Assembly (NCBI GenBank): GCA_021787535.1
Contig: JAJYLR010000001.1
Coordinates: forward strand, 383,687-447,686
Direction: 5' to 3'
Origin: a bacterium
GTDB lineage: Bacteria > Patescibacteriota > CPR2 > UBA1875 > JAJYID01
DNA length: 64,000 nt
Shown here: piece by piece, positions 7,392 to 36,864 of the stretch
Position numbering within the stretch: the stretch's first letter is position 1
How the letters are laid out: every line of letters begins with the position of its first letter
Translations under genes and position numbers: made by a program
The notes under the pieces: generated by a model
What the model was told of the DNA's origin: nothing
Databases searched by the model: none
Seen by the model: the letters and a program-made list of their open reading frames with translations, nothing else

Positions 7392-7426
7392 AGCAGTATA
7401 CGATATAAAGAAGGAGGAACAACAAT

Positions 7427-7984
7427 ATGATACAGGAACTTATAAAGGGAGCTGAGCCAAAGTTTCAAAAGGCAATTGAAATACTCGAAGAAGAGCTTGC
7501 TGCTCTTCATACCGGCAGAGCAAGCGTGTCTTTAGTCGATGATATTCAGGTAGATGTTTATGGCGCAAAAAATCCTATTAAAGCTGTAGCTACCATTACT
7601 ATCCCTGAGCCAAGATCTATCCTTATTCAACCATGGGATCAAGCAAATTTGTCCCGGATTGAAAGTGCGATCAGAGAATCTGATCTAAAATTAAATCCGG
7701 TTAACACCGGCGAAAACTTAAGAATTAATCTTCCCGAACTTACTGAGGAAAGGCGAAAAGAATTCGTGAAGATTGCACATGAGAAGGCAGAAAATGCACG
7801 GATTGCCGTGCGAAATATCAGAGGTGACATACTAAATCATATTAAAAAGGCAAAGTCAGACGGAGCAATAGGTGAGGATGATATGTATTACGGGGAAAAT
7901 GAACTGCAAAAGGTAGTAGATAAATATAATGCGCAAATTGAAGAAATCCTTTCCGGTAAAGAAAAAGACTTGTTAACTATTTAA
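7427..7984 (+). CDS. frr: Ribosome recycling factor
   Basis: 185 aa with the typical RRF sequence pattern. It follows tsf directly with no pyrH between them. Confidence 0.9.
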   Translation: MIQELIKGAEPKFQKAIEILEEELAALHTGRASVSLVDDIQVDVYGAKNPIKAVATITIPEPRSILIQPWDQANLSRIESAIRESDLKLNPVNTGENLRINLPELTEERRKEFVKIAHEKAENARIAVRNIRGDILNHIKKAKSDGAIGEDDMYYGENELQKVVDKYNAQIEEILSGKEKDLLTI

Positions 7985-8003
7985 ATTGAAAAGGAATAAA
8001 TAA

Positions 8004-9125
8004 ATGGCCCTTTTTATATCAATCATAGGATTTCTCTTTGCCATCTTTTTAATTATCACTATTCACGAGTTTGGCCATTTTGTTTCAGCAAAAGCGAGCG
8101 GTGTCAGAGTAGATGAGTTTGCTTTTGGCTTTCCTCCCAATATTTGGAAAAAGAAAATCGGGGAAACTACTTATGCTATAAATATTGTTCTCCTTGGAGG
8201 ATTTGTCAAACTTTATGGTGAAGACGGCAAAGATGATAATGACCCGCGCAGTTTTGCCTCAAAACCGTTATATACCAAGCTTTTAATCTTTGCAGCCGGG
8301 GTATTCATGAACTTTGTGCTTGCCTACTTTATCATATTTGGAAGTTATTTGGTGGGCACCCAGCCGATTATTCCCGGAATGGCCGATCAAAAAGGTGTGA
8401 ATAATAACATGCGCGCCATAGTTACGACAGTTGAGAAAGGTACGCCGGCTGAAAAGCAAGGCCTGCAAAAGGGCGACATTATAGAGGAAGTTGACGGCAT
8501 TAAAGTCAATGACAGTACAACCATTGTTCAGTATCTCGAGGAAAAGGCGGCGAAAAATAAGAATGTAACTGTCAATGCGGAGGTAAGTAGAAACGGTAAA
8601 ATTTTTAATAAAACTTTCTCAACTTATCTTTTTAAGGAAAATGTGGGCGGAAAAACCCAGGAAGTGCCGAGAATTGGGGTAGTTTTAGAGACAAACGGGA
8701 AAGTTTCAGCGCCGTTTTTTACAGCTATGAAAGCATCTTTTTTAGAAGTTGGAACATTTATCTATGAATATACAACGATGTTTTTCCAAGTCATCGGTAG
8801 CGCATTGATACATTTTAAAGCGCCTGAAGGTATTGCTGGTCCCATTGGCGTATATATTCTTACGAGTAATGCTGCACAATCCGGTTTCTCTATTTTTATT
8901 CAGTGGGTTGCCATACTCTCGATAGCCGTTGGTATTATAAATATCTTGCCGGTTCCCGGTTTGGATGGCGGCCAGATTCTCGTTGCTCTGATAGAATCCT
9001 CAGTTCGAAGAAAATTCACAGCTAAAGTTAAAGGCATCATCCAGTTTGCCGGGCTCGGTTTTGTGATTGTTTTGTATATTGCTCTAACCTTTAAAGATTT
9101 CTTTACTTTTGGTATTATCAAGTAG
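8004..9125 (+). CDS. rseP: RIP zinc metalloprotease (site-2 protease, RseP family)
   Basis: HEFGHF zinc motif, a PDZ-like middle region, and a C-terminal LDGG motif. Confidence 0.85.
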   Translation: MALFISIIGFLFAIFLIITIHEFGHFVSAKASGVRVDEFAFGFPPNIWKKKIGETTYAINIVLLGGFVKLYGEDGKDDNDPRSFASKPLYTKLLIFAAGVFMNFVLAYFIIFGSYLVGTQPIIPGMADQKGVNNNMRAIVTTVEKGTPAEKQGLQKGDIIEEVDGIKVNDSTTIVQYLEEKAAKNKNVTVNAEVSRNGKIFNKTFSTYLFKENVGGKTQEVPRIGVVLETNGKVSAPFFTAMKASFLEVGTFIYEYTTMFFQVIGSALIHFKAPEGIAGPIGVYILTSNAAQSGFSIFIQWVAILSIAVGIINILPVPGLDGGQILVALIESSVRRKFTAKVKGIIQFAGLGFVIVLYIALTFKDFFTFGIIK

Positions 9126-9144
9126 CCCTAAATAAGAATTTAAA

Positions 9145-10389
9145 ATGAAACTAAGTAAACTTTTTTCCAAGACAACGAAAAACATTTCAAAGAAAGCTGA
9201 AAGCAAAAATCATGAGCTTTTAGTTCGGGCCGGATATGTGGATCAGCTAATGGCCGGTGTCTATACATATTTGCCGCTAGGGAAAAAGGTACTCGAAAAA
9301 ATTGAGGATATTATTCGCGAAGAAATGATTGAGATCGGCGGCCAGGAGATTTTAATGCCAGCGCTCACGCCTTATGAAAACTGGCAGAAAACAGGCAGAT
9401 GGGATACTATGGACGATCTTTACCGTTTTACAAGCTATTATTCTAAAAATAAAGTGGCACTCGGCGGTACTCATGAGGAAGTGGTAACACCTCTGGCTAA
9501 AAAATATATCCTATCTTACAAAGATTTGCCAAAGTATGTTTTTCAAATTCAAACAAAATTTAGAGATGAGAAAAGGCCAAAGTCAGGAATATTGCGAGGC
9601 AGAGAATTTAGAATGAAAGATTTGTATTCATTTCATACTGATGAGCAAGATTTGAATAAATATTATGACAAGGTTATTAAAGCTTATGAAAAAATTTTCA
9701 AAAGGTTTGGTTTGGGCGATAAAACATATCTTACATTTGCGTCTGGCGGAACATTTTCCAAATTCTCGCATGAATTTCAAACAGAGTCTCCAGTGGGCGA
9801 AGATACGATCTTTGTTTGCAGAAGATGTAAAATGGGTATAAATAAAGAAATCATCCTAACCCAGAAGGAGTGCCCGAAATGCGGTAAAACTGATCTTGAG
9901 GAAACTCGGGCAATAGAGGTTGCTAATATTTTCAAACTTAAAGATAAATTCACTAAACCTTTTAAGGCGATATATCTAGATAAAAAAGGCAAAGAAAATA
10001 CTGTGCTTATGGGATGTTATGGGATTGGGCCGTCAAGGATTATGGGAACTATAGTTGAAGTGCTGTCTGATGAAAAAGGTATTGTGTGGCCAAAAGAAGT
10101 TGCCCCATATCAGATTCATCTTATCAATCTCAAGGAAAGCGAGGAGGCAGAAAGGATCTATAATAAACTGCAGGCAGCCGGCTTCGATATTTTGTGGGAT
10201 GATAGAGATGAGTCGGCTGGTATTAAATTTCAAGACGCTGATTTACTCGGAATACCATTAAGGGTAGTGATTACTGAAAAATCTTTGAAATCCGGCGGTT
10301 ATGAGCTAAAAGTAAGAAACAGAACAAAGATTGAAATCTTAAATGAAAAAAATTTAATTAAAAAAGTAAAAGATTATTATGCTAAATAG
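9145..10389 (+). CDS. proS: Prolyl-tRNA synthetase: short form without the editing (INS) domain, with a CxxC…CxxC insertion
   Basis: N-terminus 'LVRAGYVDQLMAGVYTYLPLG' and class II motifs. Only 414 aa. Carries 'CRRCKMG…CPKCGK'. Confidence 0.8.
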   Translation: MKLSKLFSKTTKNISKKAESKNHELLVRAGYVDQLMAGVYTYLPLGKKVLEKIEDIIREEMIEIGGQEILMPALTPYENWQKTGRWDTMDDLYRFTSYYSKNKVALGGTHEEVVTPLAKKYILSYKDLPKYVFQIQTKFRDEKRPKSGILRGREFRMKDLYSFHTDEQDLNKYYDKVIKAYEKIFKRFGLGDKTYLTFASGGTFSKFSHEFQTESPVGEDTIFVCRRCKMGINKEIILTQKECPKCGKTDLEETRAIEVANIFKLKDKFTKPFKAIYLDKKGKENTVLMGCYGIGPSRIMGTIVEVLSDEKGIVWPKEVAPYQIHLINLKESEEAERIYNKLQAAGFDILWDDRDESAGIKFQDADLLGIPLRVVITEKSLKSGGYELKVRNRTKIEILNEKNLIKKVKDYYAK

Positions 10390-16463: not shown

Positions 16464-16492
16464 TTGACCAATTTTTTAATATTTGTTAAAAT
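16464..16492 (+). promoter_or_regulatory. Sigma70-type promoter (TTGACC, 17 nt spacer, TAAAAT) with a hairpin leader upstream of rplJ
   Basis: Seen directly. Downstream is 'gtagcagcgaaagcttaatttgctac', a hairpin that may be the L10 leader. Confidence 0.55.
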
Positions 16493-16609
16493 GTTAATTA
16501 GCCAAAGACAGTAGCAGCGAAAGCTTAATTTGCTACCGAGGTAAAGATTTAGATAATTTTTATTCATCTTTGGTTTGTCCAAAGATTTTTAATTTATAGG
16601 AAATAAAGT

Positions 16610-17908: not shown

Positions 17909-18703
17909 GTGCAAAGAATAGTTACGGCTGTAATAGGTTTGGCCATCATTATTCTATCACTGTTGGTCTCTGTACTTTGGGATTTGGCAGTTTGTATCGC
18001 CTTTATGATCGTTGCCAAAGAAGTTGGGATGATTCTAAAGAAAATAGGCCTTAAAGTGTCGCCTTTTTTTATGATGTTGACGGTGCCATGTTACATTCTT
18101 CCGGCTGTTTTTCTTCCTTTTCATACCACATTGGCAATCGGCACTACAGCTACCCTATTGCTTTACCTAATTGCTATAAGCGGCCTTGAAACAGGTTTTT
18201 CTGCCCAACTTCTTTTGGGTTTTGTTGTGGCAGCTATCTACCCTGCAGTTTTAGCAACTTTCCTGGTAGAAATGCGCTTTCAGAATACATCACTTTTGAT
18301 TTTTATGATGGCAATTGTATTCATTGGAGATGCGGCAGCACTCTATACTGGGCGTTATCTGACAAAGCGGGGTAAAGCGCATAAAATACCTAGGAAGTTA
18401 GGAGAACTAACAAGTCCGAATAAAACCTTTGAAGGTTTTGGCGCCGGACTGGTTGTCGCCGGAGTCATTATGCCGATTATATGTTACAAAATCGGCTTAA
18501 TCAACTTCTCTCCAGGCAAAGTAATCCTTATCGCCTTAGCTTTTTCAATATCCGGTATGCTTGGTGACCTTTTTGAGTCCTTCTTAAAAAGGAAAGCCGG
18601 AGTTAAAGACTCAGGGACCATCTTGCCCGGACATGGAGGAATGCTAGATCGATTTGATGCATTGCTCTTTGCTGCAGTTATCGGATGGATTTTGTTAGTT
18701 TAA
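17909..18703 (+). CDS. cdsA: Phosphatidate cytidylyltransferase
   Basis: C-terminal signature 'GDLFESFLKRKAGVKDSGTILPGHGGMLDRFDA'. GTG start with an AAGGAG RBS. Confidence 0.85.
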   Translation: MQRIVTAVIGLAIIILSLLVSVLWDLAVCIAFMIVAKEVGMILKKIGLKVSPFFMMLTVPCYILPAVFLPFHTTLAIGTTATLLLYLIAISGLETGFSAQLLLGFVVAAIYPAVLATFLVEMRFQNTSLLIFMMAIVFIGDAAALYTGRYLTKRGKAHKIPRKLGELTSPNKTFEGFGAGLVVAGVIMPIICYKIGLINFSPGKVILIALAFSISGMLGDLFESFLKRKAGVKDSGTILPGHGGMLDRFDALLFAAVIGWILLV

Positions 18704-18763
18704 ACAAGTGCAAAAGGGCCACTCTCTTAAGAGAGTGGCCCTAATCGTTTCCTTGTCTTACCA

Positions 18764-19450
18764 TTAGCTTATAGCATGAGTTATTTTCTTGATCATTACT
18801 ACCATCCAGCCGAAGGGACTCATCAGAATCCTTGTTGCACTTTGGATGGGGAATAAATCCCTTTTCCAAAGAACGATAGCAATTTTTAAACCATCTCGAG
18901 TATAAAAATAACTGGAGATTAGTGAAAAAACAAATGCTGTGATAATGATAGGACTGAGGGCAGGGATCTGAATTTCCTGAAAATTGATTCTAAAAAAGAA
19001 ATAAACTATTATCGCGATCATTTGCAGTGCTGTAGAACACTTGCCGACGCGATTTACATTGTTTATTCCCTTGATTTTTTCCAGGATAAATGATTCGCCA
19101 GATCTTTGTGCTATTCGATGAAGATATTTAAATCCTTGGCTTAGAAAAATATTTCTAAATATAATTGCCAAAAACAATATCTCTATAGCAACTGGTAATC
19201 CTCCAAAAATAATGAGGTAGATATAAATAAGTCCGATACTGAGAGCGTCAACTATCGGATCCCATTTCTTTCCCCACTCACTTTCGGTTTTGAATTTCCT
19301 TGCCAATCTGCCATCCAGGTCTGTCAGAAAACTGAAAAGTAAACAGATAAGCCCTATAGTAGGGATGTCCAGTAACTCAAAACTTATGCCGCAGAGGCAA
19401 AGGGGAACACGCAAAAAAGTTAAAATATTTGGAAGATTTCTTCTGACCAT
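18764..19450 (-). CDS. CDP-alcohol phosphatidyltransferase family protein (PgsA-like)
   Basis: 'DLDGRLARKFKTESEWGKKWDPIVD' matches D-x2-DG-x2-AR…G-x3-D-x3-D. Internal start MVRRNLPN has an AGGAGGTG RBS 7 nt upstream, so I prefer it over the 19546 start. Confidence 0.75.
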   Translation of the reverse strand: MVRRNLPNILTFLRVPLCLCGISFELLDIPTIGLICLLFSFLTDLDGRLARKFKTESEWGKKWDPIVDALSIGLIYIYLIIFGGLPVAIEILFLAIIFRNIFLSQGFKYLHRIAQRSGESFILEKIKGINNVNRVGKCSTALQMIAIIVYFFFRINFQEIQIPALSPIIITAFVFSLISSYFYTRDGLKIAIVLWKRDLFPIQSATRILMSPFGWMVVMIKKITHAIS

Positions 19451-19531
19451 CAGTCTCACCTCCTGTGTCAATGAACACCTTTGAGTCTCTATATTATATA
19501 TAAAGATCCGAAAATTAGCTATAATAAAGCA

Positions 19532-20680
19532 ATGAAGAAATTTCAATTTGAATTAAAAAATGAAGACGGGAATGCTAGGGTTGGTAAAATCACTACGGCG
19601 CATGGAGAGATAGAGACCCCTGTCTTTATGCCGGTTGGAACTCGGGGTTCAATCAAGACTGCTTCTCCCGATGAAGTGGCAGACCTTGGCGCGCAAATCA
19701 TCCTTGGAAATACCTACCATCTTTATTTGCGACCCGGTACGGATATTATTAAAAAGCATGGTGGACTTCATAAGTTTATGCAGTGGAAAGGGCCGATTCT
19801 GACAGATTCCGGCGGTTTTCAAGTCTTTTCCCTTGGTTTTGGTTCTAAAAACAGAAAAAATGAGCGGTTGGTAAAAATTAAAGAAGACGGTGTCGAGTTT
19901 CGTTCGCATATCGACGGTTCCAAACACTTCTTTACACCTGAAAATGTAATTCAAATGCAGAAAGAAATCGGCGCAGATATTATGATGGCATTTGATGAAT
20001 GCGCGCCGGCGGATGCAGACTATGATTATGCGCGTGAGGCAATGGAGAGAACTCACAGATGGGCCGACGAGTGTATAGCTGCCAATCAAAAAATTAAATC
20101 ATTATATGGTTATGATCAGGCGCTTTTTGGTATTGTGCAAGGAGTAATTTACAAAGATTTAAGAATTGAGTCAGCAAAGTTCATGGTCAGCCGCGACTTC
20201 GACGGTATTGCCATCGGCGGGCTCGCAGTCGGTGAGAGCGAAAAAGCAAGAAATGAAATGCTTGAGACTGTTATGCCTTATCTGCCAAAGGATAAACCCA
20301 GATATTTAATGGGAGTGGGTTTCCCTCAAGATATTCTGAACGCAGTTGAATGTGGGATAGACATGTTTGACTGCGTTTTACCGACACGGCTGGCAAGAAA
20401 CGGAACCCTTTGGACATATCAAGGGAAAATCAATCTTTTAAATACCAAATACTCTTGTGATTTGGATCCGATCGAGAAAAACTGCGATTGTTACGCTTGC
20501 CAAAATTTTTCCCGATCATATGTCGCTCATTTAATAAAAGAGGGGGAAATTTTAGGGATTCGTTTAACTACTATCCATAATTTACGTTTTATGATGAGAT
20601 TTATGCGTGACATTAGAAACTCTATTTCGGAAGGCAATTTTGACGGGTTTAAAAATAAATTTATCAGGAATTTTCTCTAA
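19532..20680 (+). CDS. tgt: Queuine tRNA-ribosyltransferase
   Basis: 'TPVFMPVGTRGS…LTDSGGFQ…', a zinc site 'CDCYAC', and a TIM-barrel TGT pattern. Start is probably MKKFQF (19532) rather than 19481. Confidence 0.85.
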   Translation: MKKFQFELKNEDGNARVGKITTAHGEIETPVFMPVGTRGSIKTASPDEVADLGAQIILGNTYHLYLRPGTDIIKKHGGLHKFMQWKGPILTDSGGFQVFSLGFGSKNRKNERLVKIKEDGVEFRSHIDGSKHFFTPENVIQMQKEIGADIMMAFDECAPADADYDYAREAMERTHRWADECIAANQKIKSLYGYDQALFGIVQGVIYKDLRIESAKFMVSRDFDGIAIGGLAVGESEKARNEMLETVMPYLPKDKPRYLMGVGFPQDILNAVECGIDMFDCVLPTRLARNGTLWTYQGKINLLNTKYSCDLDPIEKNCDCYACQNFSRSYVAHLIKEGEILGIRLTTIHNLRFMMRFMRDIRNSISEGNFDGFKNKFIRNFL

Positions 20681-20769
20681 AAAGTAGCAGAAAGACTTAA
20701 ATTGTGCTACAATTGTACATTGGTTGGAAAATATTTTCCTGAAACTTGACAATAGAAAGCAGGTGAGTA

Positions 20770-22452
20770 ATGAAAAGGGCCTTAGTCTTAGGCGGTGGAG
20801 CAATGTATGGTGCCTATGATCTAGGCGCCTTGAAAGTCTTCACTAAAGAAGGGATTGTTTTTAATACTGTATATGCTGGTTCATCAGGTGTTTTCCTTGC
20901 TGGATATTATGCTTCTGGGCAGATTATGGATTTCGAAAAGATATGGCTCGGGAGTTCTGTTAGAAAAATAATGAAGCTCTCGAATATCCTCAAGATAAAA
21001 AGAGTTATGACTTTAGACCCGATTATCGATGAAATCATAAACGGGAATCATTGCCTTAACCTAGAGGCAATGCTAGCGTCAGAAGTTGAACTTGTGTTCT
21101 CTCTCACGGAATACCCTACAGGAAACGCTCTCACGGTTTACCCAAAGGACTGGCCAGACTTGATATATAAGATTATGGAAGCTTCAGCTGCTCTATATCC
21201 TTTTGTATCTCCGGTCGAAATTAAAGAAAAAAAATATATAGATGGGACTCTGAGTATCCCAGTTCTTCTATCAAGAGCTCTTGAAGACGGACATGACGAG
21301 GTGGTTCTTCTTCAAAATAAACCGCTCAAGAGAGGGGATTATGACAAATTCTGGTCTTTATCTTCTTATCTCTCACCAATTTTCTCGGAAGGTATTGAGA
21401 ATCTGATCAGGACTTATCCTGAAAGAAGAGATCGAGAACTTGACCTAAGAAGTAAAGCACAGTTGCTTTGTCCTAATTCCAGACTCCCTCTCAAACATTT
21501 TCTCGATACAGATTTAATACGGCTAGAAAGAAGCATGAGAATTGGTAGTCGAGATGCTCGATTTTTCATCAAGGAAGAAATTCCTCCGTTCAGAAAAAAG
21601 ATGAAAATTAACAAGAGGTATATTCGTAAAATCAAAAAGGAATTTTATGGATATATTCTCGGCAATAAAACAAGGAGGAAGAAATATCGCGGATACTACA
21701 GAGCACTGAGAAGCTACAAGTTCATCTCACTTAGTTTCAAAAGAGGCAATCTTATAGAGCTGTTTAATATCGCTATGAGATTATCAGATGATATTGCTGA
21801 CGGAGACTTAAGATTGCCTAAGGGTTATGCTACTTCAGCAGATTTTCTGGAAGAAAAGATTGCCTTCCTCGATGATCTGAGTGATCCTAGGGACAAAATT
21901 GAGGTACTGTTAGTATATTGCCATCAAATAGCTCTCAGTCTTGGTTTTGATATAATCGAGGAAGCCAGACAAATCCTTACCTCTCTTTTGTTTGATGCCA
22001 AAAGAAGGGAATCCTCTGAAGTTTTTCCTGATAAGATATTGCATGAAAACTTTCATAGGCTGGATATTGAGGGTGCTATTAGTGGCACGGTTAAAATTAT
22101 GAAAGGAGAAAAGGACCTAATACCGAAAGTTATTCCGCTTGGCTACGCAAGTAGAATCTACTACAATCTCAGAGATTACGAAGATGACATCGCGGCGGGA
22201 TTAATAAATATCTCAGCTGAAGACTGTGAACGTCTCGGGATTCCCATGGATTCCACTAAACTAAACGATCGCTTTACCAAATCAGTGAGAGTCTGGTTTG
22301 AAGAACAGGCAATCCTTGGTCTTAACTTGATAGAGGATTATAAAACGCGCATGAAGGGAGAAAAGCTCTCTAGAACCGTTCGCATTTCCTTAAATGGTTT
22401 TGAGGTGAAAGCAGGATCGTACCTTAAAAAAGTCTTAGAGGGTTCTTTGTGA
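20770..22452 (+). CDS. Fusion protein: N-terminal patatin-like phospholipase plus C-terminal squalene/phytoene-synthase-like domain
   Basis: Patatin motifs GGGAMYG, AGSSG (A/GxSxG) and DGT. C-terminal 'AMRLSDDIADGD' (DDxxD) and 'YYNLRDYEDDIAAG…SAEDCERLGI' (NxxRDxxxD…G) match the SQS_PSY motifs. Confidence 0.6.
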   Translation: MKRALVLGGGAMYGAYDLGALKVFTKEGIVFNTVYAGSSGVFLAGYYASGQIMDFEKIWLGSSVRKIMKLSNILKIKRVMTLDPIIDEIINGNHCLNLEAMLASEVELVFSLTEYPTGNALTVYPKDWPDLIYKIMEASAALYPFVSPVEIKEKKYIDGTLSIPVLLSRALEDGHDEVVLLQNKPLKRGDYDKFWSLSSYLSPIFSEGIENLIRTYPERRDRELDLRSKAQLLCPNSRLPLKHFLDTDLIRLERSMRIGSRDARFFIKEEIPPFRKKMKINKRYIRKIKKEFYGYILGNKTRRKKYRGYYRALRSYKFISLSFKRGNLIELFNIAMRLSDDIADGDLRLPKGYATSADFLEEKIAFLDDLSDPRDKIEVLLVYCHQIALSLGFDIIEEARQILTSLLFDAKRRESSEVFPDKILHENFHRLDIEGAISGTVKIMKGEKDLIPKVIPLGYASRIYYNLRDYEDDIAAGLINISAEDCERLGIPMDSTKLNDRFTKSVRVWFEEQAILGLNLIEDYKTRMKGEKLSRTVRISLNGFEVKAGSYLKKVLEGSL

Positions 22453-22477
22453 GGAGGCACAGAGAACCCTATTTTTA

Positions 22478-22507
22478 TTGACAAGCATATTAGGTTTCAG
22501 CTAATAT
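22478..22507 (+). promoter_or_regulatory. Sigma70-type promoter (TTGACA, 18 nt spacer, TAATAT)
   Basis: Seen directly, upstream of the 22574 ORF. Confidence 0.5.
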
Positions 22508-22573: not shown

Positions 22574-23530
22574 ATGAAAGAGGATAAAAGGATAAAACAA
22601 ATACAAAAATTGCTCGATGTCGCCGAAGGCAACCTGCATTCAGCCAGAAATTTATTTTTAGATATTTTAGGAGAAGATAAGACAGGTAGGGTCGATCATA
22701 AAGAGTCGGCTCGCGACCTGTCTATTTCAGACGAAGGGAAAATAATAGAAGGCATCTTCGACGGAGAGCAGATGATGTCACCAGATGGTAAAAAATATCC
22801 AGTACCTGCAAACTACGCTTCGAAATCGAAGCTTGTCGAGGGTGATACTTTGAAGCTCACAATTGCCGAAAATGGCTCTCTTCTTTACAAACAGATCAAA
22901 CCGGTAGAGCGAAAAAACCTAATTGGAAGCTTGGTATATGAAAATGGCAGCTACTCAGTCCTCGCAGAAGGGAAGAAATATCATATTCTTTTTGCCTCTG
23001 TTACTTATTATAAGGGTGAACAGGGAAATCAAGCTTCTATCATAGTGCCGGCTGATCAACCAAGTACTTGGGCTGCGCTGGATTCCATTATTCACGATCA
23101 TCATAAGAGTATGGAAAATCCAAAAAAAGACAAACAGTCGGAGGGAAAGGCAGAAAAGGGAGTTAAAGAAAAGGAAGAGGCAGATCAGTTAGAGTTGCCG
23201 GAAGAAAATAAAGAAATTTTAGAAGAGGTTAAGGAAAGATATTTAGATGATAAAACCCAACCTAAAGAATCCAAAGATGGAGGTCATAATTTAGAAAGTC
23301 CAGAAAAGGCAGGGGGCGAGAAAGATATTGAGTCCAAGCAAGAGAATATAAAAACTCAAACACCTAAAAAAACAGTTAGTGAACCAGCTGATGAACATCT
23401 AAGTATTAAAAGTAATCCTTCCCCTTTTCTCGAGGAGAAAAGGGATGATGAAATAGAGGAGAAGAACTCTTTAGGTGAAGATTCCCCAAACGATTCTAAT
23501 CCTGAAAATGTCAGAGAATTAGAGATTTAG
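22574..23530 (+). CDS. Hypothetical protein with an acidic, probably disordered, C-terminal half
   Basis: No recognisable motifs. Lys/Glu/Asp-rich tail. Confidence 0.5.
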   Translation: MKEDKRIKQIQKLLDVAEGNLHSARNLFLDILGEDKTGRVDHKESARDLSISDEGKIIEGIFDGEQMMSPDGKKYPVPANYASKSKLVEGDTLKLTIAENGSLLYKQIKPVERKNLIGSLVYENGSYSVLAEGKKYHILFASVTYYKGEQGNQASIIVPADQPSTWAALDSIIHDHHKSMENPKKDKQSEGKAEKGVKEKEEADQLELPEENKEILEEVKERYLDDKTQPKESKDGGHNLESPEKAGGEKDIESKQENIKTQTPKKTVSEPADEHLSIKSNPSPFLEEKRDDEIEEKNSLGEDSPNDSNPENVRELEI

Positions 23531-24303
23531 TGAGTTTCTATACCTCTAATCTTTATATCTGATTTGTAAATTTCAGATTTAATATTTTCGTTGTATAAAT
23601 TAAGCATGTCTTTATTTTGTATAATTTTCGAGCTTTCAGGGTAATTACTTTTTAAAATTTCTTTAAATTCTTCGCCTGCACCCTTTAAGTTTATAAATTC
23701 AAACCAGTAGAAGTCAGCGTGATCCTTTGTGTCTTTCATAACTTTATCTAAATCAAATACATCAGGAATTATTGGACTGACAAAAGCGTAAGTTCTAATG
23801 CCTGATTTTTTTAATTTTTTCATTGCTTCGACTCTTTTAATATTTTCGGGTGAATTCGGTTCGAAAAGCTGCTGATCCTTTCCTTGAAATGAGTTAATGG
23901 TAAAGCCCACTTCAATATTTTTAAATTGCTTCAATAAATCCAAGTCTCTTAAGACCAAATCCGACTTCGTTAAGATAGAAAGATCCGTATTTTTATCCAG
24001 ATTTTCCAGGACTTTTCTTGTCAGCTTGAGTTCCTTTTCAGCTGGCTGATATGCATCGCTCACAGAACTCATAAATACTTTTCCGGAAATCTTCCTGCCC
24101 CTCACTAGATCTGGCGCATTTATTTTCGCTTCTATCCACGTACCCCAGTTACCGTATCCTTTCCATCTTGATATAAATTTGGCATAGCAATATGTGCAGC
24201 CATGAGAACATCCGACATACTGGTTTATAACGTAATCAGCTCCCGGCAGATTTGTCTTTGTAAAGATCTCTTTGGCTTTTGTTTTGATGATTTTTTGTTT
24301 CAT
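23527..24303 (-). CDS. Radical SAM protein of the spore-photoproduct-lyase-like (SplB/COG1533) family
   Basis: 'INQYVGCSHGCTYCYAKF' is the CxxxCxxC cluster in the xGCxHxCxYCY context. Confidence 0.65.
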   Translation of the reverse strand: MKQKIIKTKAKEIFTKTNLPGADYVINQYVGCSHGCTYCYAKFISRWKGYGNWGTWIEAKINAPDLVRGRKISGKVFMSSVSDAYQPAEKELKLTRKVLENLDKNTDLSILTKSDLVLRDLDLLKQFKNIEVGFTINSFQGKDQQLFEPNSPENIKRVEAMKKLKKSGIRTYAFVSPIIPDVFDLDKVMKDTKDHADFYWFEFINLKGAGEEFKEILKSNYPESSKIIQNKDMLNLYNENIKSEIYKSDIKIRGIETH

Positions 24304-29310: not shown

Positions 29311-30051
29311 ATGGGTATGTTTTGTCCGCCAAACTGCGAGACTGCAGAAGCAATCGCGGTTGTTAAGTTCATTATCGAACTGATAGTCCAGCGAAAATCA
29401 CAAGAAATTTCTTGCGAAGCGGCGGAGCAAGAAATAGTTGCACGAGCTTCAGAAAAGGAAATTAAGGCGATGCTCGAGGATATGAAACTACCTCATTCCT
29501 TTTTTTATCGAGCATGGCAGTCTGGGACCAATATCTTAAATGAAAACAGATATCTCAAAGCTGATATTCAAAAAGATAAAACGCGAGTATTGAAAATCAA
29601 CTATGATATATTCAAACGTCTGTCCTTAGGAGTAGAGTTTACTTATCCTCTCCAAAGGGCCTTAAAAGGAAAACTTCCAAAAGGCCGCGAAGAACTTAAG
29701 AAATATTTTCACTATAAAGATGTGGCAAATATTCCAAAACAAAAGCTGCCATTGCCGCTTGCAATGGTACTTCGTCCAAAACAGCCGCCCCGGCAAAAAA
29801 CTCGTATTTCCAAAAAACCCAATTATGAACAACGAGTTAGCGAATTCATTGAGAGCTTTGGAATACGCGGATGTTATCGGAGTAACATCTCCGGGAAATT
29901 CAGAAAACTCAACCAGGAAGGTGATCTGAGAATAATACTTATTACTCTTCAAAAAGAAGAGAAGATAACACTCAAAAGAAGGGGCCCAGAACCAAAATCC
30001 GATGTCTTTGTTGCAACAAAGCACATTCATCAAATAGCAAGGAGGCAGTGA
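29311..30051 (+). CDS. Hypothetical basic protein
   Basis: 246-aa ORF with no recognisable domain. Confidence 0.5.
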   Translation: MGMFCPPNCETAEAIAVVKFIIELIVQRKSQEISCEAAEQEIVARASEKEIKAMLEDMKLPHSFFYRAWQSGTNILNENRYLKADIQKDKTRVLKINYDIFKRLSLGVEFTYPLQRALKGKLPKGREELKKYFHYKDVANIPKQKLPLPLAMVLRPKQPPRQKTRISKKPNYEQRVSEFIESFGIRGCYRSNISGKFRKLNQEGDLRIILITLQKEEKITLKRRGPEPKSDVFVATKHIHQIARRQ

Positions 30052-30197: not shown

Positions 30198-31520
30198 GTG
30201 AAAGGGGTAGAAATGGCATTTATGATTAGGGATGATCTTGCAGGAGATGCCCTCATCCATCATGGGAAAAGACTTACTGAAGAAGAAATTAAGGGATATA
30301 TGACCGATGAGCAAACCGGCAAGCTAAGCAATGACGAAGCAGACGCTTCATTTGCTTTGGCAGTGAAGAGAAGAATAATCGAAAAAGCTGCAGTCAGGGA
30401 AACGGACAAAGAAGGAAACTCTGTCTTCGAATACGATTTTCCGGAAAATATTACAGATGAGGAACGGGAGAAAACGGTACAGGCAGAGCAAAAAGTGGCG
30501 GAAAAATCTAAAGAATCAAGCACAACCCCCCCCGAAACACAAATTGCATCAGGAGGTGCGCAGGTGGCTGCTCAGGAAGACAAATCAAAGGGCCCGGTGA
30601 TGCTCCTTCTGACAATTCAGAAGCTTTCACCGGACAACACACTGCTCGAAAGAGATATGATTGTCGATGCTCTGGTCGAGAATAGGCAGACGATGGGCTG
30701 GTCAAAGAAAGAAGCCCGTACTAAAGCCGGTGTACTGGTCAATAATAATGTCACTAATAAAAAGCTGACCAAAACGGCAACCGGAATGATCAAGATCACG
30801 GTAAAGGGACTTGATTATCTTAAAGAAAAACTGGCCGAAAATCCCGAATATGCCAACTTGGCAAGCGCATCGGTCAAGAGAACAGCGGAAAAAAAGAAAA
30901 GGTCCAAGCCCAGCACAGGCAAGAGTGTCAACATTGAAGCTAAGGCCGAGGAATTTCCTCAGGTAGTCAAGAACCTCATGCCTGAATATGACGATGGGGA
31001 AGTACCTTCGGGAGCTATCAAGGAAGCCCTGGGACTCGCAGATGCCGCTCCCTATGTCTGGAATAGTGTAAGAGACGCTGCCTTCAAGAAAAATAAAGGG
31101 CTGAGCCAACACGATAAGGGTCCGCGAACAAGATATTCTATCTCAGAGGCCAAGAATGTACCCAAACAAAACAGTCAGGGCTCTGAAGAAGGAGAAGGGT
31201 CGAGACAGTACGTCCCAAATAAAAAAGCAGAAAAACCTCATTTCCCCGGTGCAAGAGTCGTTGGTGCCGGAGAGGTACTAATCAGCGGCGTAAATATCGA
31301 TGTCCTTCTTGATGAGGATTTCAAACCCCTGGTCGTCGCTCGACAAGGTATTATCTCCGCTGATTCGCTGGATGAATGTACGATCGCATTCAGAATTACC
31401 AGTCGGGAAAATCCGGATGAAAGCGCCGAAGTTGATCTTATCTTTGGCGGAGAAGATTCCATCCCCGGCAATTACCACACACCGGAAGGTGTCGTACTTA
31501 AGGAACGTCCTGTGGAATAA
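30198..31520 (+). CDS. Hypothetical protein, about 48-50% GC
   Basis: 440 aa with no recognisable motif and locally elevated GC. Confidence 0.5.
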   Translation: MKGVEMAFMIRDDLAGDALIHHGKRLTEEEIKGYMTDEQTGKLSNDEADASFALAVKRRIIEKAAVRETDKEGNSVFEYDFPENITDEEREKTVQAEQKVAEKSKESSTTPPETQIASGGAQVAAQEDKSKGPVMLLLTIQKLSPDNTLLERDMIVDALVENRQTMGWSKKEARTKAGVLVNNNVTNKKLTKTATGMIKITVKGLDYLKEKLAENPEYANLASASVKRTAEKKKRSKPSTGKSVNIEAKAEEFPQVVKNLMPEYDDGEVPSGAIKEALGLADAAPYVWNSVRDAAFKKNKGLSQHDKGPRTRYSISEAKNVPKQNSQGSEEGEGSRQYVPNKKAEKPHFPGARVVGAGEVLISGVNIDVLLDEDFKPLVVARQGIISADSLDECTIAFRITSRENPDESAEVDLIFGGEDSIPGNYHTPEGVVLKERPVE

Positions 31521-31541
31521 TCTCACTGCACAGTGAGACAA

Positions 31542-31568
31542 GCCCCCGCAATAACGGGGGCTTTTTCT
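31542..31568 (+). terminator. Intrinsic terminator
   Basis: 'gcccccgcaataacgggggc' followed by 'tttttct'. Preceded by the palindrome tctcactgcacagtgaga. Confidence 0.7.
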
Positions 31569-31623
31569 ATTGTTTACACTTATGATTTTTGATATTATGA
31601 TTGCAGTAATGAAGGAGTTTCAA

Positions 31624-32265
31624 ATGGACACAGTAAAAAAAGATTATTTAGCATCAATTATCATTGGAGCTGTAGCAGCTGTTTTATCAGTGATCATGGT
31701 TAACAACCTCGGCTTTCAAAGCTTAAAGGTCTATATGTTGGCAGCTCTAATCTTACTAATCATGCCTCCTGCCGGCATCTTAGTAGCCCGTTTAATCGGC
31801 AGGAAATCTCACAGTTTATATCAGTTTATAAAATTCGCAGAAACCGGCGGACTCAATACTTTTGTAGATCTCGGGATTTTAAATCTGCTCATCTTAATGA
31901 CCGGTCTTTCGGGTGGCATTTTTTATTCGATTTTTAAAGGAACTTCCTTTACTGTCGCCGTCATCAACTCTTATTTTTGGAATAAACATTGGGTTTTTGA
32001 ATCTCATATTAAAGGAGGGGTTAGGCAAGAAAAAGAGTTTGCCAAGTTTGTCACTGTAAGCGTCGGCGGATTTTTGGTCAATGTGCTGGTAGCCAGCGCC
32101 ATAGTTTTCTTTGGCAAAAGCGCCATTAATTTAACTCCAAAACTTATGGCTAATCTCGGAGCGGCAATTGCCTTTATTGTGACTATGATGTGGAATTTCT
32201 TCGGTTATAAACTAATAGTTTTCGTGCGGCCCAAAAGCGCGGCTGCCGGTGCCGCCGCCGAGTAG
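31624..32265 (+). CDS. GtrA-family membrane protein (polyprenyl-phosphate-sugar translocation)
   Basis: 'FIKFAETGGLNTFVDLGILNLL…SYFWNKHWVF' matches the GtrA signature. The internal start has a GAAGGAG RBS. Confidence 0.65.
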   Translation: MDTVKKDYLASIIIGAVAAVLSVIMVNNLGFQSLKVYMLAALILLIMPPAGILVARLIGRKSHSLYQFIKFAETGGLNTFVDLGILNLLILMTGLSGGIFYSIFKGTSFTVAVINSYFWNKHWVFESHIKGGVRQEKEFAKFVTVSVGGFLVNVLVASAIVFFGKSAINLTPKLMANLGAAIAFIVTMMWNFFGYKLIVFVRPKSAAAGAAAE

Positions 32266-32277
32266 AGTAAAATCTTC

Positions 32278-33828
32278 ATGAAAATGAAAATACCCTCTAA
32301 GCTCAAGGGAATAAATAAAAAGAAAGGGAGCGAAAAGGTTGCTCTTCAGCCGAAGGTCTCCGGTCGGAATACTCAAAATATTACAGTTTTTGCGCGGGAT
32401 TTTGCTTTAAAAACTAAAGGTTTGATTTTAAAACCTTCTTATTTATGGGCGATTTTAGTTTTTGCCTTTTTAACGCGGCTCTACAATATAGGTAATTTAG
32501 GAATAAACGAAAACGAACTCAAAAATGTCGATCGCATTTTTGCCATGTCAAATATCGGCAATTTCCTTAACCAAAATGTTTCCACAAATCTCTACTACTT
32601 GCTGCAAAACATTTGGGGTAGATTTTTTGGATTCTCGATTACTAATATGCGGATTTTCTCAGTACTGCTGTCAGTCTTGGGATTATACTTGTTTTTTAAA
32701 TTTACCGAAGAGTGGTTTAATAGGCGTTTAGCATATATAGCCACTTTTCTCCTCTCGATTTCCAGCTATCACATCCTTCTTTCCAGGAATATTTCCCATG
32801 AAGTGCTTTATTTTGCGCTTGTAATTTTTGCTTTTCACACACTCACACTTGCTTATAGGCGAAAAAGCAGGTTTTATTTTGCATTATCCGGATTTTTATT
32901 TGGACTGGCATTCTATGCCAGCGAAATAACTTTTGCTCTAGCTCTTCTTTTTGCCATCGCTTTGATTTATTTTTATAAAAAAAACAGCCGGTTCTTTACA
33001 TCATTCGTGAAAGAAAAAATCATTGCTGTTTCGGCTGGTTTTTTGACGATTTTGCCATTCTTGTATGCAGCCGGTAAAAACCCAAATATTTTCCTATCTC
33101 ATTTCACACTGGGAATTAACATGGTTTTAAACAATATCAATCTTTTCTTCTCATCGCTTATTTTAAGCGCGCCGAGAGGATACGAATATACGGTTTCAAC
33201 CGATAAAGTTTTCGATCCTTTCGTACTGCTGACATTTCTTTTAGGTTCTGTGTATGCGTGCATAAAAATCAAAAGGCGCAAATTTTATTTTCTCGTATCC
33301 TGGTTTTTTCTTTTAACTCTTATTATGATATGCGAGAAGGAATTTTCATTAGGCGGTTTTATTTATATCTTACCGGTCATTTTTATCTTGTCGGCTAGAA
33401 TTCAGACCTACGTACTTGATAAATGGTTTAAAACATTCCCATTCAACAGATTTGCGCGCATTACGGCTATAGCGGGGATTGGCTTTATGTTTGCCTTATC
33501 GCTTACCTATAATTACCGCAAAGTTTTTGCGGCCTGGCAGAAATATCCCGAAAGAAACTTTGTTTATAACTCAGCCATATCTCAAACAGATTTTGGTAAG
33601 AATACAGTTTTTCTTTACAAAACAGGTCTAGATAGGCCGGCTTTGGAATCAATTTTGAAAAATGGGGGAGAAAATAACCTCAAAGATATTAGTGACGTAT
33701 CATCTCTAAAAGGCAAATTTAATTTACTGACTTCCCCTCAGGCAGTTTCTAATGTAAGATTGAAACTGAAAGATAAAAAATTTCAAATAACAAGCGGACA
33801 TGACATTGTCCTTATGAAGGGAGAGTAA
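32278..33828 (+). CDS. Membrane glycosyltransferase, GT39/83 (PMT/ArnT-like, PMT_2)
   Basis: About 11 TM segments, an aromatic-rich N-terminal half, and a C-terminal soluble domain. Confidence 0.55.
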   Translation: MKMKIPSKLKGINKKKGSEKVALQPKVSGRNTQNITVFARDFALKTKGLILKPSYLWAILVFAFLTRLYNIGNLGINENELKNVDRIFAMSNIGNFLNQNVSTNLYYLLQNIWGRFFGFSITNMRIFSVLLSVLGLYLFFKFTEEWFNRRLAYIATFLLSISSYHILLSRNISHEVLYFALVIFAFHTLTLAYRRKSRFYFALSGFLFGLAFYASEITFALALLFAIALIYFYKKNSRFFTSFVKEKIIAVSAGFLTILPFLYAAGKNPNIFLSHFTLGINMVLNNINLFFSSLILSAPRGYEYTVSTDKVFDPFVLLTFLLGSVYACIKIKRRKFYFLVSWFFLLTLIMICEKEFSLGGFIYILPVIFILSARIQTYVLDKWFKTFPFNRFARITAIAGIGFMFALSLTYNYRKVFAAWQKYPERNFVYNSAISQTDFGKNTVFLYKTGLDRPALESILKNGGENNLKDISDVSSLKGKFNLLTSPQAVSNVRLKLKDKKFQITSGHDIVLMKGE

Positions 33829-33831
33829 AAG

Positions 33832-34680
33832 ATGTCGGATAATATTTATTTATCAGTTATAATTCCTTGCAAAAACCAAGCGGACAGAGTAAAGAAAACT
33901 TTAAATGATATTCTGGAACATTCTCGGCAGCTTCGATTTGATACTGAGGTGGTTTTTGTTGACGGAGACTCTACTGATGGCAGCGCGGAAGTGGCTGAGA
34001 GTTTTAAAGGTGAAATGAAACATCTCCAAATTCTACATGAACAAGATTTGGAGATTGGCCCGCATTTTACAGGCAAAGGCGCCGCAGTGAAATGCGGCAT
34101 GGCGCATGCGAAGGGAAAGATTAAGATGTTTATGGATGCTGACTCCTCCACACCCTTTAAAGAGATAGATAAAATACTGCCATATTTTGATAAAGGTTAT
34201 GATGTGGTGATGGGCTCCAGATATACAGCCAAACCATTGCCGGCAACAAATAGCACCTTTCAAGCTTTTGTACATGCAGTGAAGGAGGTTTTTGAAGTTT
34301 TGATTTACGGCCATTCTAAAAGCAATACAACAATCAAAAAACAGGGGCGCCTCAGACAGCTTATTTCCCGCGGGGGAAATCTTGCATTTGTGGTCTTACT
34401 CGGCCAGAGTTTTGCCGACACCAGATGCGGATTTAAGGCCTATACCAAAGAAGCGGCAAAGAAGTTGTTCGATATGCAGACTTTGCCGGGCTTTGGCTTT
34501 GACACAGAAATTCTGGTGATTGCAAAAAAATATAATCTTAAAATTATTGAAGTACCGGTTCACTGGTATGATGATGCTGAAGACACTAATATTACTATAG
34601 GAAATTCGCTCAAAACCTTCCTGGAGATATTTAAAATAAGATGGAATAGTTTAAGTGGCAAATACTCACCCTCAAAATAA
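33832..34680 (+). CDS. GT2 polyprenol-phosphate glycosyltransferase (DPM1/GtrB-like)
   Basis: 'LSVIIPCKNQ', a DxD motif 'FMDADSS', and a GT-A fold pattern. Confidence 0.75.
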   Translation: MSDNIYLSVIIPCKNQADRVKKTLNDILEHSRQLRFDTEVVFVDGDSTDGSAEVAESFKGEMKHLQILHEQDLEIGPHFTGKGAAVKCGMAHAKGKIKMFMDADSSTPFKEIDKILPYFDKGYDVVMGSRYTAKPLPATNSTFQAFVHAVKEVFEVLIYGHSKSNTTIKKQGRLRQLISRGGNLAFVVLLGQSFADTRCGFKAYTKEAAKKLFDMQTLPGFGFDTEILVIAKKYNLKIIEVPVHWYDDAEDTNITIGNSLKTFLEIFKIRWNSLSGKYSPSK

Positions 34681-35107
34681 AGGTCAAAATCTTGTTAAGC
34701 TGTTTTTAGCATTTTTAGTTTTGATTTTGGTTTTTGTTTTTTTCAACGACTCAGCGTATAATCTAATCAAGCAAAAGCTTATTAAAAACGGCGATAAGTA
34801 CGCGGAAATATACGCTTACGCTAAGTCAAAGCCAGACAGTGAAAATAAATATTTTATACTACAGGGCAATGATTTATCAAAAATCTTTTTAAAGAATGAG
34901 GTTAAAACAATAGATGAAAATCACTTAAGCAATATAAACTGTTCTCAAGGTGAAACGCTTTTGATTTACGAAAAACCCAGCCAAAAAATTGATGCTTTCG
35001 TGAAAAAAGAGAACGGAAATGAGGTGATCCTCAACCAGGGTACAAAAATAGAGTTTTTCGCGGCAAATATCAAAGGGTCGCCGGGTTCATGTAAAGTAGG
35101 AGGGTGA
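34655..35107 (+). CDS. Hypothetical membrane-anchored protein
   Basis: N-terminal TM segment (LVKLFLAFLVLILVFVFF) with a short ectodomain. Confidence 0.45.
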   Translation: MANTHPQNKGQNLVKLFLAFLVLILVFVFFNDSAYNLIKQKLIKNGDKYAEIYAYAKSKPDSENKYFILQGNDLSKIFLKNEVKTIDENHLSNINCSQGETLLIYEKPSQKIDAFVKKENGNEVILNQGTKIEFFAANIKGSPGSCKVGG

Positions 35108-36822: not shown

Positions 36823-36864
36823 CCGTGGCTCTGAGCGCTCAACCCCCAAATATTAAAAACTAAA

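Follow-up and report, generated by a model that had tools for sequence, protein, structure and literature searches.

A patatin-like phospholipase domain fused to a divergent squalene/phytoene synthase-like domain: a putative membrane-lipid remodelling enzyme of a candidate-phylum bacterium

Results

Gene and neighbourhood

The window analysed here is a 64-kb stretch of DNA from an uncultured, small-genome bacterium of the candidate phyla radiation (CPR). The organism was placed solely by the similarity of its CysRS to that of 'candidate division WS5'. At 20770..22452 on the plus strand it holds a complete open reading frame of 560 aa, with an ATG start and the stop codon included (ORF list). 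This position was given exactly in the first-pass annotation, and all of the motifs quoted there were found in the translated protein. A Shine-Dalgarno-like AGGTGA (20761..20766, +), read from the sequence, lies 3 nt 5' of the ATG, and a terminator scan detected an intrinsic-terminator-like hairpin (22439..22480, +) that overlaps the stop codon and has a 13-bp stem, with 6 G-C pairs, and a T-run. The composition of the gene is unremarkable. Neither a transmembrane segment nor a signal peptide was predicted over the whole 560 aa.

The gene is found in the order tgt, fusion gene, unknown gene, dnaX, dnaB, which is kept in two genomes; a short way upstream are genes for CdsA and a CDP-alcohol phosphatidyltransferase. 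The window also encodes MreB, MreC and PBP2, together with a block of GtrA, GT2 and three PMT_2 proteins. Since PBP2/MreBC, GtrA, GT2 and the three PMT_2 proteins depend on polyprenyl-phosphate carriers, the host needs such carriers; with these genes present, the earlier view that prenyl-diphosphate chemistry is unexpected in this organism is not supported. No isoprenoid-precursor genes were found within the 64-kb window.

The patatin-like domain

To the N-terminal part of the protein (residues 5-165; 20782..21264, +) the Pfam scan assigned the patatin profile PF01734 with E=4.3e-12 and 47.1 bits against a gathering cut-off of 27.7, a score far beyond chance. Weak matches were to PlpD (5fqu) and to the RssA profile, the latter scoring no more than 24 bits where the cut-off is 272. 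The predicted Gly-rich oxyanion-hole loop, GGGAMYG (residues 8-14; 20791..20811, +), aligned to SGGAARG of PlpD. The basic residue expected in G-G-x-[RK]-G is Tyr13 here, and the loop reads GGGGMYG in an ortholog of 55% identity. In the nucleophile elbow, A-G-S38-S-G (residues 36-40; 20875..20889, +), Ser38 aligned to the Ser of G-T-S-M-G in PlpD; the first Gly of G-x-S-x-G is replaced by Ala36, and by Thr in the ortholog, while G-S-S-G is invariant between the two. The candidate catalytic Asp lies in D158-G-T (residues 158-160; 21241..21249, +), which aligned to DGG of PlpD and sits in a Y-I-D-G that is invariant in the ortholog. All patatin motifs are thus kept in the ortholog alignment.

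The protein shares with the PF01734 proteins PlpD, RssA and ExoU the aligned elbow Ser, the D-G-x catalytic Asp and a Gly-rich loop, the last with Tyr for the usual Arg/Lys. It is very divergent from bacterial patatins, with AGSSG for GxSxG, and in contrast to PlpD, RssA and ExoU it lacks a secretion or POTRA module and carries a C-terminal isoprenoid-synthase-like domain. These features identify the N-terminal half as a predicted patatin-type acyl hydrolase with Ser38 and Asp158 as its putative catalytic pair. In the full-length AlphaFold model most of residues 63-276 fall below a pLDDT of 50, because just three sequences cover this half. The same low confidence (pLDDT <50) applies to residues 166-280 (21265..21609, +), which comprise the remainder of the lipase and the inter-domain linker and include a conserved IGSRDARFFIK. 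The junction at residues 268-325 is very basic, with a calculated net charge of +19.

The squalene/phytoene synthase-like domain

Residues 281-558 (21610..22443, +) form a divergent all-alpha domain resembling the squalene synthase/phytoene synthase (SQS/PSY, Trans_IPPS_HH) proteins. In direct scans this resemblance was not detected: PF00494 gave no match at E<=10 to the whole fusion protein or to two C-terminal fragments of it, and the NCBIfam scans likewise returned no SQS/PSY match. In contrast, an HMM of its own family matched the C-terminal domain with E=3e-93, and PF00494 matched 75 of 88 family members (best 1.4e-12, several above the 26-bit cut-off), as the HpnD profile did 63 of the 88. 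Searched against the PDB, the family profile matched phytoene synthase (5iys, 4.4e-10), a CrtM-like protein (8is6, 1.7e-8) and HpnC (4hd1, 6e-6), with both Asp-rich motifs in register. The domain has a class I isoprenoid-synthase alpha-helical fold to which SQS/PSY structures are nearest, and its closest relatives by sequence and structure are HpnC, HpnD, CrtM, CrtB and SQS. Because the family-level evidence is positive, the missing Pfam and NCBIfam matches are not proof of absence. The refuting condition set in the first-pass annotation, the lack of any score with SQS_PSY profiles, thus holds literally for this sequence on its own but is overturned by the family-profile and structural comparisons. 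Membership of the C-terminal half in the squalene/phytoene synthase superfamily, as a strongly diverged representative, is established transitively, through the family profile, and structurally.

We examined the active-site motifs of the domain in these alignments, from which the CrtM residue numbers used here are taken. The first Asp-rich motif, M-R337-L-S-D340-D341-I-A-D344-G-D346 (residues 336-346; 21775..21807, +), is in register with R45, D48, D49 and D52 of CrtM; D344 is present in 88/88 family members, D340 in 87/88 and R337 in 83/88. The second, YYNLRDYEDDIAAG...NISAED (residues 464-485; 22159..22224, +), contains R468, D469, D473, N480 and E484 and aligned to R171, D172 and D176 of CrtM and to NILRDVGED of phytoene synthase. 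Here D469 is invariant (88/88), followed by N480 and E484 (both 85/88), D473 (82/88) and R468 (66/88). The two motifs are intact and correctly spaced as had been proposed, although D340 and D469 are 129 residues apart rather than about 140; this is very close to the distance of 124 that separates D48 from D172 in the CrtM of S. aureus. Between them lies a family-specific motif, F-D409-A-K-R412 (21991..22005, +), in which D409 and R412 are both found in 88/88 members. The putative Mg2+-binding Asp residues (D340/D344 and D469/D473) and the predicted diphosphate-anchoring R337 and R468 are thus kept.

Other positions differ. Y129, Q165 and N168 of CrtM, catalytic-side residues that are conserved between PSY and CrtM (PMC13304436), align to N427, R462 and Y465, and the family has H/Y (majority H), R and Y there. 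At the position of CrtM Y41 the family has a near-invariant Tyr, for which the fusion clade has Asn333, and the conserved 'GR.Y' after the second motif is swapped for G-L-I-N. Since the equivalents of Y129/Q165/N168 and Y41 are replaced, the domain could be catalytically altered, or even inactive.

Compared with CrtM, CrtB/PSY, HpnC and HpnD (2zco, 5iys, 4hd1, 8is6), the domain has R-x-x-D-D-x-x-D and R-D-x-x-x-D in register and a recognisable 'A/G-G-T/S-[IV]-G' helix. However, identity is only 11-17%, the fusion protein lies below Pfam detection, and it has 'G..NI..ED' where those enzymes have 'GR.Y.P'. It also has the invariants of its own family (FDAxR, D432 and W509) and is lipase-fused, without an amino-oxidase partner gene. 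Similarity to the carbazole prenyltransferases CqsB4 and LvqB4 (7vwt, 7vws) was marginal (LvqB4, E=0.052). These and the FPP phosphatase YisP of B. subtilis (3we9) are SQS-like proteins but not head-to-head synthases, and they act in natural-product or biofilm contexts without a lipase fusion.

The fusion is genuine and rare

A chimeric assembly, or a frameshift joining two adjacent genes, might produce such a reading frame, and the exact protein is on record in its full context on one contig only, of 635,771 bp. The identical protein is, however, also present on an independent Logan assembly (L007). The ortholog (P0152/P0002, 55% identity) has the same continuous architecture with the motifs of both halves conserved, and it was recovered from JGI data and from at least three additional samples. 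The junction itself, IGSRDARFFIK..PP.R.K, is kept in the ortholog. Since an ortholog this diverged has the same architecture in independent samples, the fusion did not arise in assembly, and the artefact explanation is effectively refuted.

The PF01734 scan together with the family-profile and structural evidence therefore bears out the proposed fusion of a patatin-like domain with an SQS/PSY-superfamily domain. The architecture was also rightly called unusual, being extremely rare and patchy. A search of the literature for patatin-PSY fusions in nature returned only plant-engineering papers. In domain databases the architecture is invisible, because current annotation sees only 'patatin'.

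The wider subfamily

An exhaustive HMMER search recovered 292 representatives of the SQS/PSY-like subfamily, mostly standalone proteins of 270-330 aa. The subfamily, with about 290 clusters, is uncharacterised and spans CPR bacteria, DPANN archaea and Bacteroidota. Because most members stand alone, the SQS/PSY-like domain has its own function. Other members are repeatedly fused, on either side, to a domain of ~230 aa, here called domain X, whose sole PDB similarities (48/48 matches) are to trans-polyprenyl-diphosphate synthases, at the second DDxxD motif. The hhalign comparison of domain X with the SQS-like family was not significant. These fusions (for example Peregrinibacteria L019, Peribacteria L024, P0033 and P0072) are likewise two-domain CPR proteins, of ~530-570 aa, and have the same SQS-like domain (E 1e-72 to 1e-95 with the family HMM), but their partner is of the isoprenoid type and not a patatin lipase. 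In Bacteroidota, the cultured Labilibacter and Carboxylicivirga included, the family gene shares a conserved operon with genes for an ABC exporter and for an ICMT/PEMT-Lgt fusion. Together, the domain-X fusions and this operon point to unrecognised isoprenoid chemistry.

Two candidates were considered and rejected. A 280-aa gene beside the Bacteroidota homologs was taken as a possible HpnC/HpnD-like paralog and showed no similarity to the family HMM. A 243-aa reading frame 12 bp upstream of the standalone homolog P0003 was considered as the other part of a split gene; it encodes a hydrophobic protein without patatin motifs.

The neighbourhoods of the standalone members were uninformative. Neighbourhood enrichment around the CPR and DPANN family genes revealed nothing recurrent, and a Rosetta-stone search of 27 other genomes found no patatin gene beside a standalone family member. 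Nothing besides the fusion itself links the lipase and SQS/PSY-like activities. Within the window we found no UppS, no second family copy and no domain X. Amino oxidases of the CrtI/CrtN/HpnE type are typical neighbours of head-to-head synthases (PMC7306690); none was found among the annotated window ORFs, or in 73 ORFs flanking about 20-25 other family genes.

Discussion

The architecture and the homology of the two halves are, in our view, very probably as described, and the question is what the protein does. A genuine head-to-head synthase, tethered to a lipase and making dehydrosqualene, phytoene, presqualene diphosphate or hydroxysqualene from FPP or GGPP, would supply a membrane-rigidifying hydrocarbon. 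The closest relatives of the domain, HpnC, HpnD, CrtM, CrtB and SQS, are consistent with this, as are the intact Asp-rich motifs with their CrtM-like spacing and equivalents of R45 and R171, and the first motif is of the DDxxD type found in the HpnC/HpnD/CrtB/CrtM branch (PMC7306690). The canonical activity implied in the first-pass annotation is nevertheless at odds with N427, R462 and Y465 (H/Y, R and Y in the family) at the positions of CrtM Y129, Q165 and N168. G-L-I-N in place of 'GR.Y' and the lack of a CrtI/CrtN/HpnE-type partner, both in the window and around the family genes surveyed, also speak against it, and we consider it unlikely. The loss of several canonical catalytic-side residues, with Asn333 for the near-invariant Tyr in the fusion clade, might instead indicate a non-catalytic domain that binds lipid or polyprenyl diphosphates and serves to target or regulate the patatin half, for instance by activating the lipase at bactoprenyl-diphosphate-rich membranes. 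The high positive charge of the junction points to docking at the membrane, and to our knowledge no synthase activity has been demonstrated for other SQS_PSY-fold proteins such as NDUFAF6. Yet the metal-binding Asp residues, R412 and D409 show little or no variation among the 88 bacterial and archaeal members and are kept in both fusion orthologs, a pattern expected of an active site, and most family members stand alone. We regard this possibility as slightly less probable still than a head-to-head synthase.

Patatin domains are effectors in CBASS, as CapV is, and in other systems, and the rare, patchy architecture would also fit an anti-phage or inter-bacterial effector, in which a membrane-destroying patatin is paired with a C-terminal domain sensing a diphosphate-containing signal. 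However, PADLOC models gave no match at E<=0.01 to the fusion protein or its immediate partners, and adjacent cyclase, sensor or immunity genes are absent. The housekeeping neighbours tgt, dnaX and dnaB are in an order shared with a genome whose fusion protein is just 55% identical, which is atypical of mobile defence islands, and neither the unremarkable composition nor the lack of a signal peptide favours such a role. The earlier suggestion of a defence effector thus finds little footing here, and we think it improbable.

The fusion protein is most likely a membrane-lipid remodelling enzyme and is probably soluble and membrane-peripheral. The best explanation of the whole, with a probability of roughly 0.55, is a bifunctional lipid enzyme in which prenyl-diphosphate handling and deacylation are coupled in housekeeping remodelling. 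The C-terminal domain would bind and ionise a prenyl diphosphate, drawn from the FPP-type pool that may also supply bactoprenol synthesis. Its product is probably not squalene or phytoene, since the CrtM/PSY catalytic-side residues are replaced; the domain may instead pass the prenyl group to a different acceptor, go no further than a PSPP-like intermediate, or hydrolyse the diphosphate. By deacylating scavenged glycerolipids, the patatin half would yield a lysolipid and a fatty acid. In CPR bacteria lipid synthesis is missing and lysolipids are enriched, and phospholipase A activity can yield lysolipids (PMC7242380). The fusion may couple both steps at the membrane surface, in a role outside defence systems and outside the carotenoid and hopanoid pathways. 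This specific coupled mechanism is tentative, and we hold it well below the general assignment.

More speculatively, the subfamily may represent a new transferase class that uses prenyl diphosphates to place an isoprenoid onto a non-isoprenoid lipid or thiol acceptor, with no head-to-head condensation. In the fusion protein, the lipase would act on lipids scavenged from a host and so provide the acceptor, which would be a fatty acid, a lysolipid or a glycerol backbone. We consider this a long shot; if true, organisms without de novo lipid synthesis would use one enzyme to make hybrid acyl/isoprenoid membrane lipids. The subfamily keeps its metal/diphosphate core intact, is altered on the catalytic side and is widely scattered. 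CPR bacteria and DPANN archaea presumably subsist on scavenged lipids, and the fusion protein is a concrete, expressible candidate for tailoring them.

Results

The fusion gene is a 560-aa ORF with an ATG start at 20770..22452 (+). The first-pass annotation had described its product as a patatin-like phospholipase joined to a squalene/phytoene-synthase (SQS/PSY)-like domain, and the ORF and all of the quoted motifs were present as stated, namely GGGAMYG (residues 8-14), AGSSG (36-40), DGT (158-160), MRLSDDIADGD (336-346) and YYNLRDYEDDIAAG...NISAED (464-485). The two Asp-rich motifs had been placed about 140 aa apart; the measured distance from D340 to D469 is 129 residues, which is still an SQS/PSY-like spacing, close to that of S. 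aureus CrtM, where D48 and D172 are separated by 124 residues (alignment numbering). A Shine-Dalgarno-like AGGTGA is located 3 nt 5' of the ATG. The stop codon is overlapped by a terminator-like hairpin (13-bp stem) with a T-run, and the 90 bp separating tgt from the fusion gene yielded no promoter-like site, suggesting that the fusion gene ends a transcription unit, which may or may not be shared with tgt. The protein has no TM segment and no signal peptide, and its inter-domain junction has a net charge of +19, features compatible with peripheral attachment to anionic membranes.

Residues 5-165 matched Patatin (PF01734) in Pfam at E=4.3e-12, with 47.1 bits against a cut-off of 27.7 bits, confirming the proposed identity of the N-terminal half. 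The only NCBIfam similarity of this half was a weak one to RssA, and its PDB match was PlpD (5fqu). Aligned with PlpD, the fusion protein has Ser38 at the position of the nucleophile Ser and D158-G at that of the catalytic D-G-G, and its Gly-rich loop corresponds to SGGAARG. The fusion protein differs in having Tyr13 in place of the loop basic residue of the patatin pattern, and Ala rather than Gly in the first position of the nucleophile elbow. The predicted Ser/Asp dyad is intact. The patatin elements are kept in the ortholog P0152 (55% identity overall), which argues for selection maintaining what would be a working dyad.

Searched alone, the C-terminal half gave no Pfam or NCBIfam match even at E<=10. 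On that result the SQS/PSY assignment would fall by the criterion that the first-pass annotation itself had set, but the result was overturned by more sensitive evidence at the level of the family. Apart from the window protein itself, a word-indexed search of 5.8 billion clusters found only P0002, a fusion of the same two domains (54% identity), and P0003, whose 308 aa are the C-terminal domain alone, which shows this domain to be an independent module. When 1.84 billion representatives were searched exhaustively by HMMER with a three-sequence C-terminal profile, 292 proteins reached E<=1e-3, of which 100 reached E<=1e-30; most stand alone and have 270-330 aa. In an alignment of 88 members of this subfamily, 75 matched SQS_PSY (PF00494; best 1.4e-12), and several family members passed its 26-bit Pfam cut-off; NCBIfam matches were to HpnD (63/88), HpnC (45/88) and cyanobacterial CrtB (30/88). 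One member is already named "squalene/phytoene synthase family protein" by NCBI. The alignment profile matched phytoene synthase 5iys (E=4.4e-10), CrtM-like 8is6 (1.7e-8), HpnC 4hd1 (5.9e-6) and S. aureus CrtM (3e-4) in the PDB with both Asp-rich motifs in register, and residues 281-558 of the fusion protein matched the family HMM at E=3e-93. Because of these family-profile, PDB-profile and family-HMM matches, homology of the C-terminal half to the SQS/PSY (Trans_IPPS_HH) superfamily is well supported. This half has the SQS/PSY fold.

The active site was compared by alignment with CrtM and by column counts over the 88 members. In CrtM, D48 and D52 are metal ligands and R45, R171 and R265 are diphosphate anchors, while Y129, Q165 and N168 are catalytic-side residues common to PSY and CrtM (PMC13304436). 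R337, D340 and D344 of the fusion protein align with CrtM R45, D48 and D52 (83, 87 and 88 of 88), and R468, D469 and D473 with R171, D172 and D176 (66/88 plus 9 Lys, 88/88 and 82/88). The four PSY-like Asp residues are retained in 82-88 of the 88 members, and the predicted Asp/Arg metal and diphosphate core is intact. In contrast, Y129 is replaced by N427 (His in 44 members, Tyr in 25, Asn in 11), Q165 by R462 (Arg in 84/88) and N168 by Y465 (Tyr in 67/88), the Asn of "YNLRD" being one residue out of register with N168. The canonical "GR.Y.P" after motif 2 is "G..N-I..E-D" in the family (N480 and E484, each 85/88). Family-specific invariants are F-D409-A-x-R412 (88/88), D432 and W509, and a near-invariant family Tyr aligned to CrtM Y41 is Asn333 in the patatin-fused clade. 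Motif 1 is of the DDxxD form, which marks the HpnC/HpnD/CrtB/CrtM branch versus Sqs (PMC7306690) and groups the family with that branch. We read these residues as those of a diphosphate-ionising enzyme with second-substrate or product chemistry unlike that of canonical head-to-head synthases, and doubt that it has canonical synthase activity. Prenyl transfer or diphosphate hydrolysis on this scaffold has precedents in CqsB4/LvqB4 and YisP.

Among GTDB species representatives, the subfamily occurs in CPR (Patescibacteria, Peregrinibacteria, Peribacteria, Gracilibacteria, Paceibacterota), DPANN (Woesearchaeota) and Bacteroidota (Labilibacter, Carboxylicivirga, Flavobacteriaceae, Saprospiraceae, Cyclobacteriaceae, Muribaculaceae). 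The patatin fusion is confined to two 90%-identity clusters, that of the window protein (P0001) and P0002/P0152. No patatin gene was found near standalone family members in 27 other genomes and no gene recurred in the CPR/DPANN neighbourhoods, so the patatin fusion is lineage-specific. It is rare and conserved, a new domain architecture in a poorly known subfamily, both built from known families.

At least eight family members are fused to another partner of ~230 aa, here domain X, which is C-terminal in P0033, P0055, P0083, P0089 and the genes at L019:5806-7509 and L024:5968-7566 and N-terminal in P0072 and P0103; its hosts are Peregrinibacteria, Peribacteria and others. It has no Pfam family and carries the motifs YDxxTDW, DGLERG and LQIxDDxLDxExD..NC. 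Its 48 PDB similarities, each of them weak, were without exception to trans-polyprenyl diphosphate synthases and fell on the second DDxxD motif (best E=4.9e-4); this evidence is at the motif level only but consistently ties the subfamily to isoprenoid chemistry.

In five Bacteroidota genomes (contigs L008, L009, L011, L013 and L016), the SQS-like gene is first in a conserved operon (L008:5980-11007). Next come an unannotated ~280-aa gene, with 41% identity of the Labilibacter product to that of a Flavobacteriaceae, then genes for an ABC ATPase and an ABC-2 permease, and lastly one for a 620-640-aa fusion of a PEMT/ICMT-like methyltransferase to an Lgt-like diacylglyceryl transferase. In L017, a sixth genome, the operon lacks the two ABC genes. 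The operon, found in cultured and uncultured members, looks like an undescribed system for lipid or lipopeptide modification and export. On L008, the operon has a radical-SAM gene on its upstream side and a gene for an Orn/DAP decarboxylase on its downstream side. In at least two independent assemblies (L004:7257-7988, L005:1344-2075), a gene for a 243-aa hydrophobic protein is located 12 bp 5' of the P0003 gene; this protein has no Pfam match, is not patatin-like and may be an operon partner of P0003.

The gene content of the window is that of ordinary bacterial core sequence, with S2, RF, RseP, ProRS, MreB, MreC, PBP2, an L10 leader, CdsA, CDP-alcohol phosphatidyltransferase, TGT, DnaX, DnaB, sigma factors, RecR, CysRS, Dus, RecO and SerRS. 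Its parent contig measures 635,771 bp. The CysRS shares 73% identity with one from "candidate division WS5" and at most 60% with those of Patescibacteria and DPANN. At gathering score, Rfam found only the ribosomal protein L10 leader (16484-16600(+), 68.6 bits) and one tRNA (45643-45713(+)) in the 64 kb. Two genes upstream of the fusion, cdsA (17909-18703) is beside the divergent CDP-alcohol phosphatidyltransferase gene (pair 17909-19546). On the ortholog's contig, as in the window, tgt is followed by the fusion gene, a conserved unknown, dnaX and dnaB. The conserved unknown (22574-23530(+); L001:2735-3715 on the ortholog's contig) is preceded by a promoter-like TTGACA-18-TAATAT (22478-22507) and encodes a 318-aa protein with a globular N-terminal half, a long acidic low-complexity C-terminal tail and no Pfam or PADLOC match. 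Convergent with it is a gene (23527-24303(-)) for a 258-aa protein that contains CSHGCTYCY, a CxxxCxxC motif of the radical-SAM type, and for which PADLOC matches were weak only (candidate models PDC-M30B/PDC-M41B, E~1e-6). Farther away, a 485-aa protein (45997-47454(-)) is recognisable only in its N-terminal ~75 aa, a MazG pyrophosphohydrolase domain, the other ~390 aa being unannotated.

A defence role had been hinted at for the fusion. PADLOC gave no match for the fusion protein, and its context is housekeeping and non-defence, adjoining phospholipid head-group genes and conserved in order, all of which speaks against that role. Isoprenoid chemistry had likewise been considered unexpected in this organism. 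The 64-kb window yielded no ispA, uppS, idi or amino-oxidase gene. The uppS-cdsA pair is retained in the S2/RseP/ProRS cluster in many bacteria; here, two short ORFs separate S2 from RseP and ProRS downstream (5983-10389), and neither cdsA nor uppS lies between them. A dense envelope glycosylation block (30198-38391(+)) encodes a GtrA-like protein (31570-32265(+)), a GT2 (33832-34680(+)) and three paralogous PMT_2/ArnT-like glycosyltransferases (32278-33828, 35104-36822 and 36865-38391, all +); two ORFs without Pfam match lie ahead of these genes (29311-30051, 30198-31520). The glycosyltransferases of this block depend on polyprenyl-phosphate-linked sugars. Together with the peptidoglycan genes, the GtrA/GT2/PMT_2 genes (31570-38391) imply that the host would use polyprenyl-phosphate carriers, and prenyl diphosphates would thus not be foreign to it.

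Discussion

The domain identities and the rarity of the architecture proposed by the first-pass annotation stand, whereas its premise of unexpected isoprenoids and its defence hint are not supported. CPR bacteria do not synthesise lipids and are rich in lysolipids, which can arise through phospholipase A activity (PMC7242380). The patatin half may deacylate scavenged glycerolipids, and the C-terminal half may ionise a prenyl diphosphate, its reaction probably being other than classical squalene or phytoene synthesis. The fusion would bring both activities together at the membrane; the full-length model is poor in the N-terminal half and gives no reading of a shared surface. The fusion gives testable access to the ways in which ultrasmall, lipid-auxotrophic microbes tailor their lipids, and to an SQS/PSY superfamily branch that is uncharacterised.
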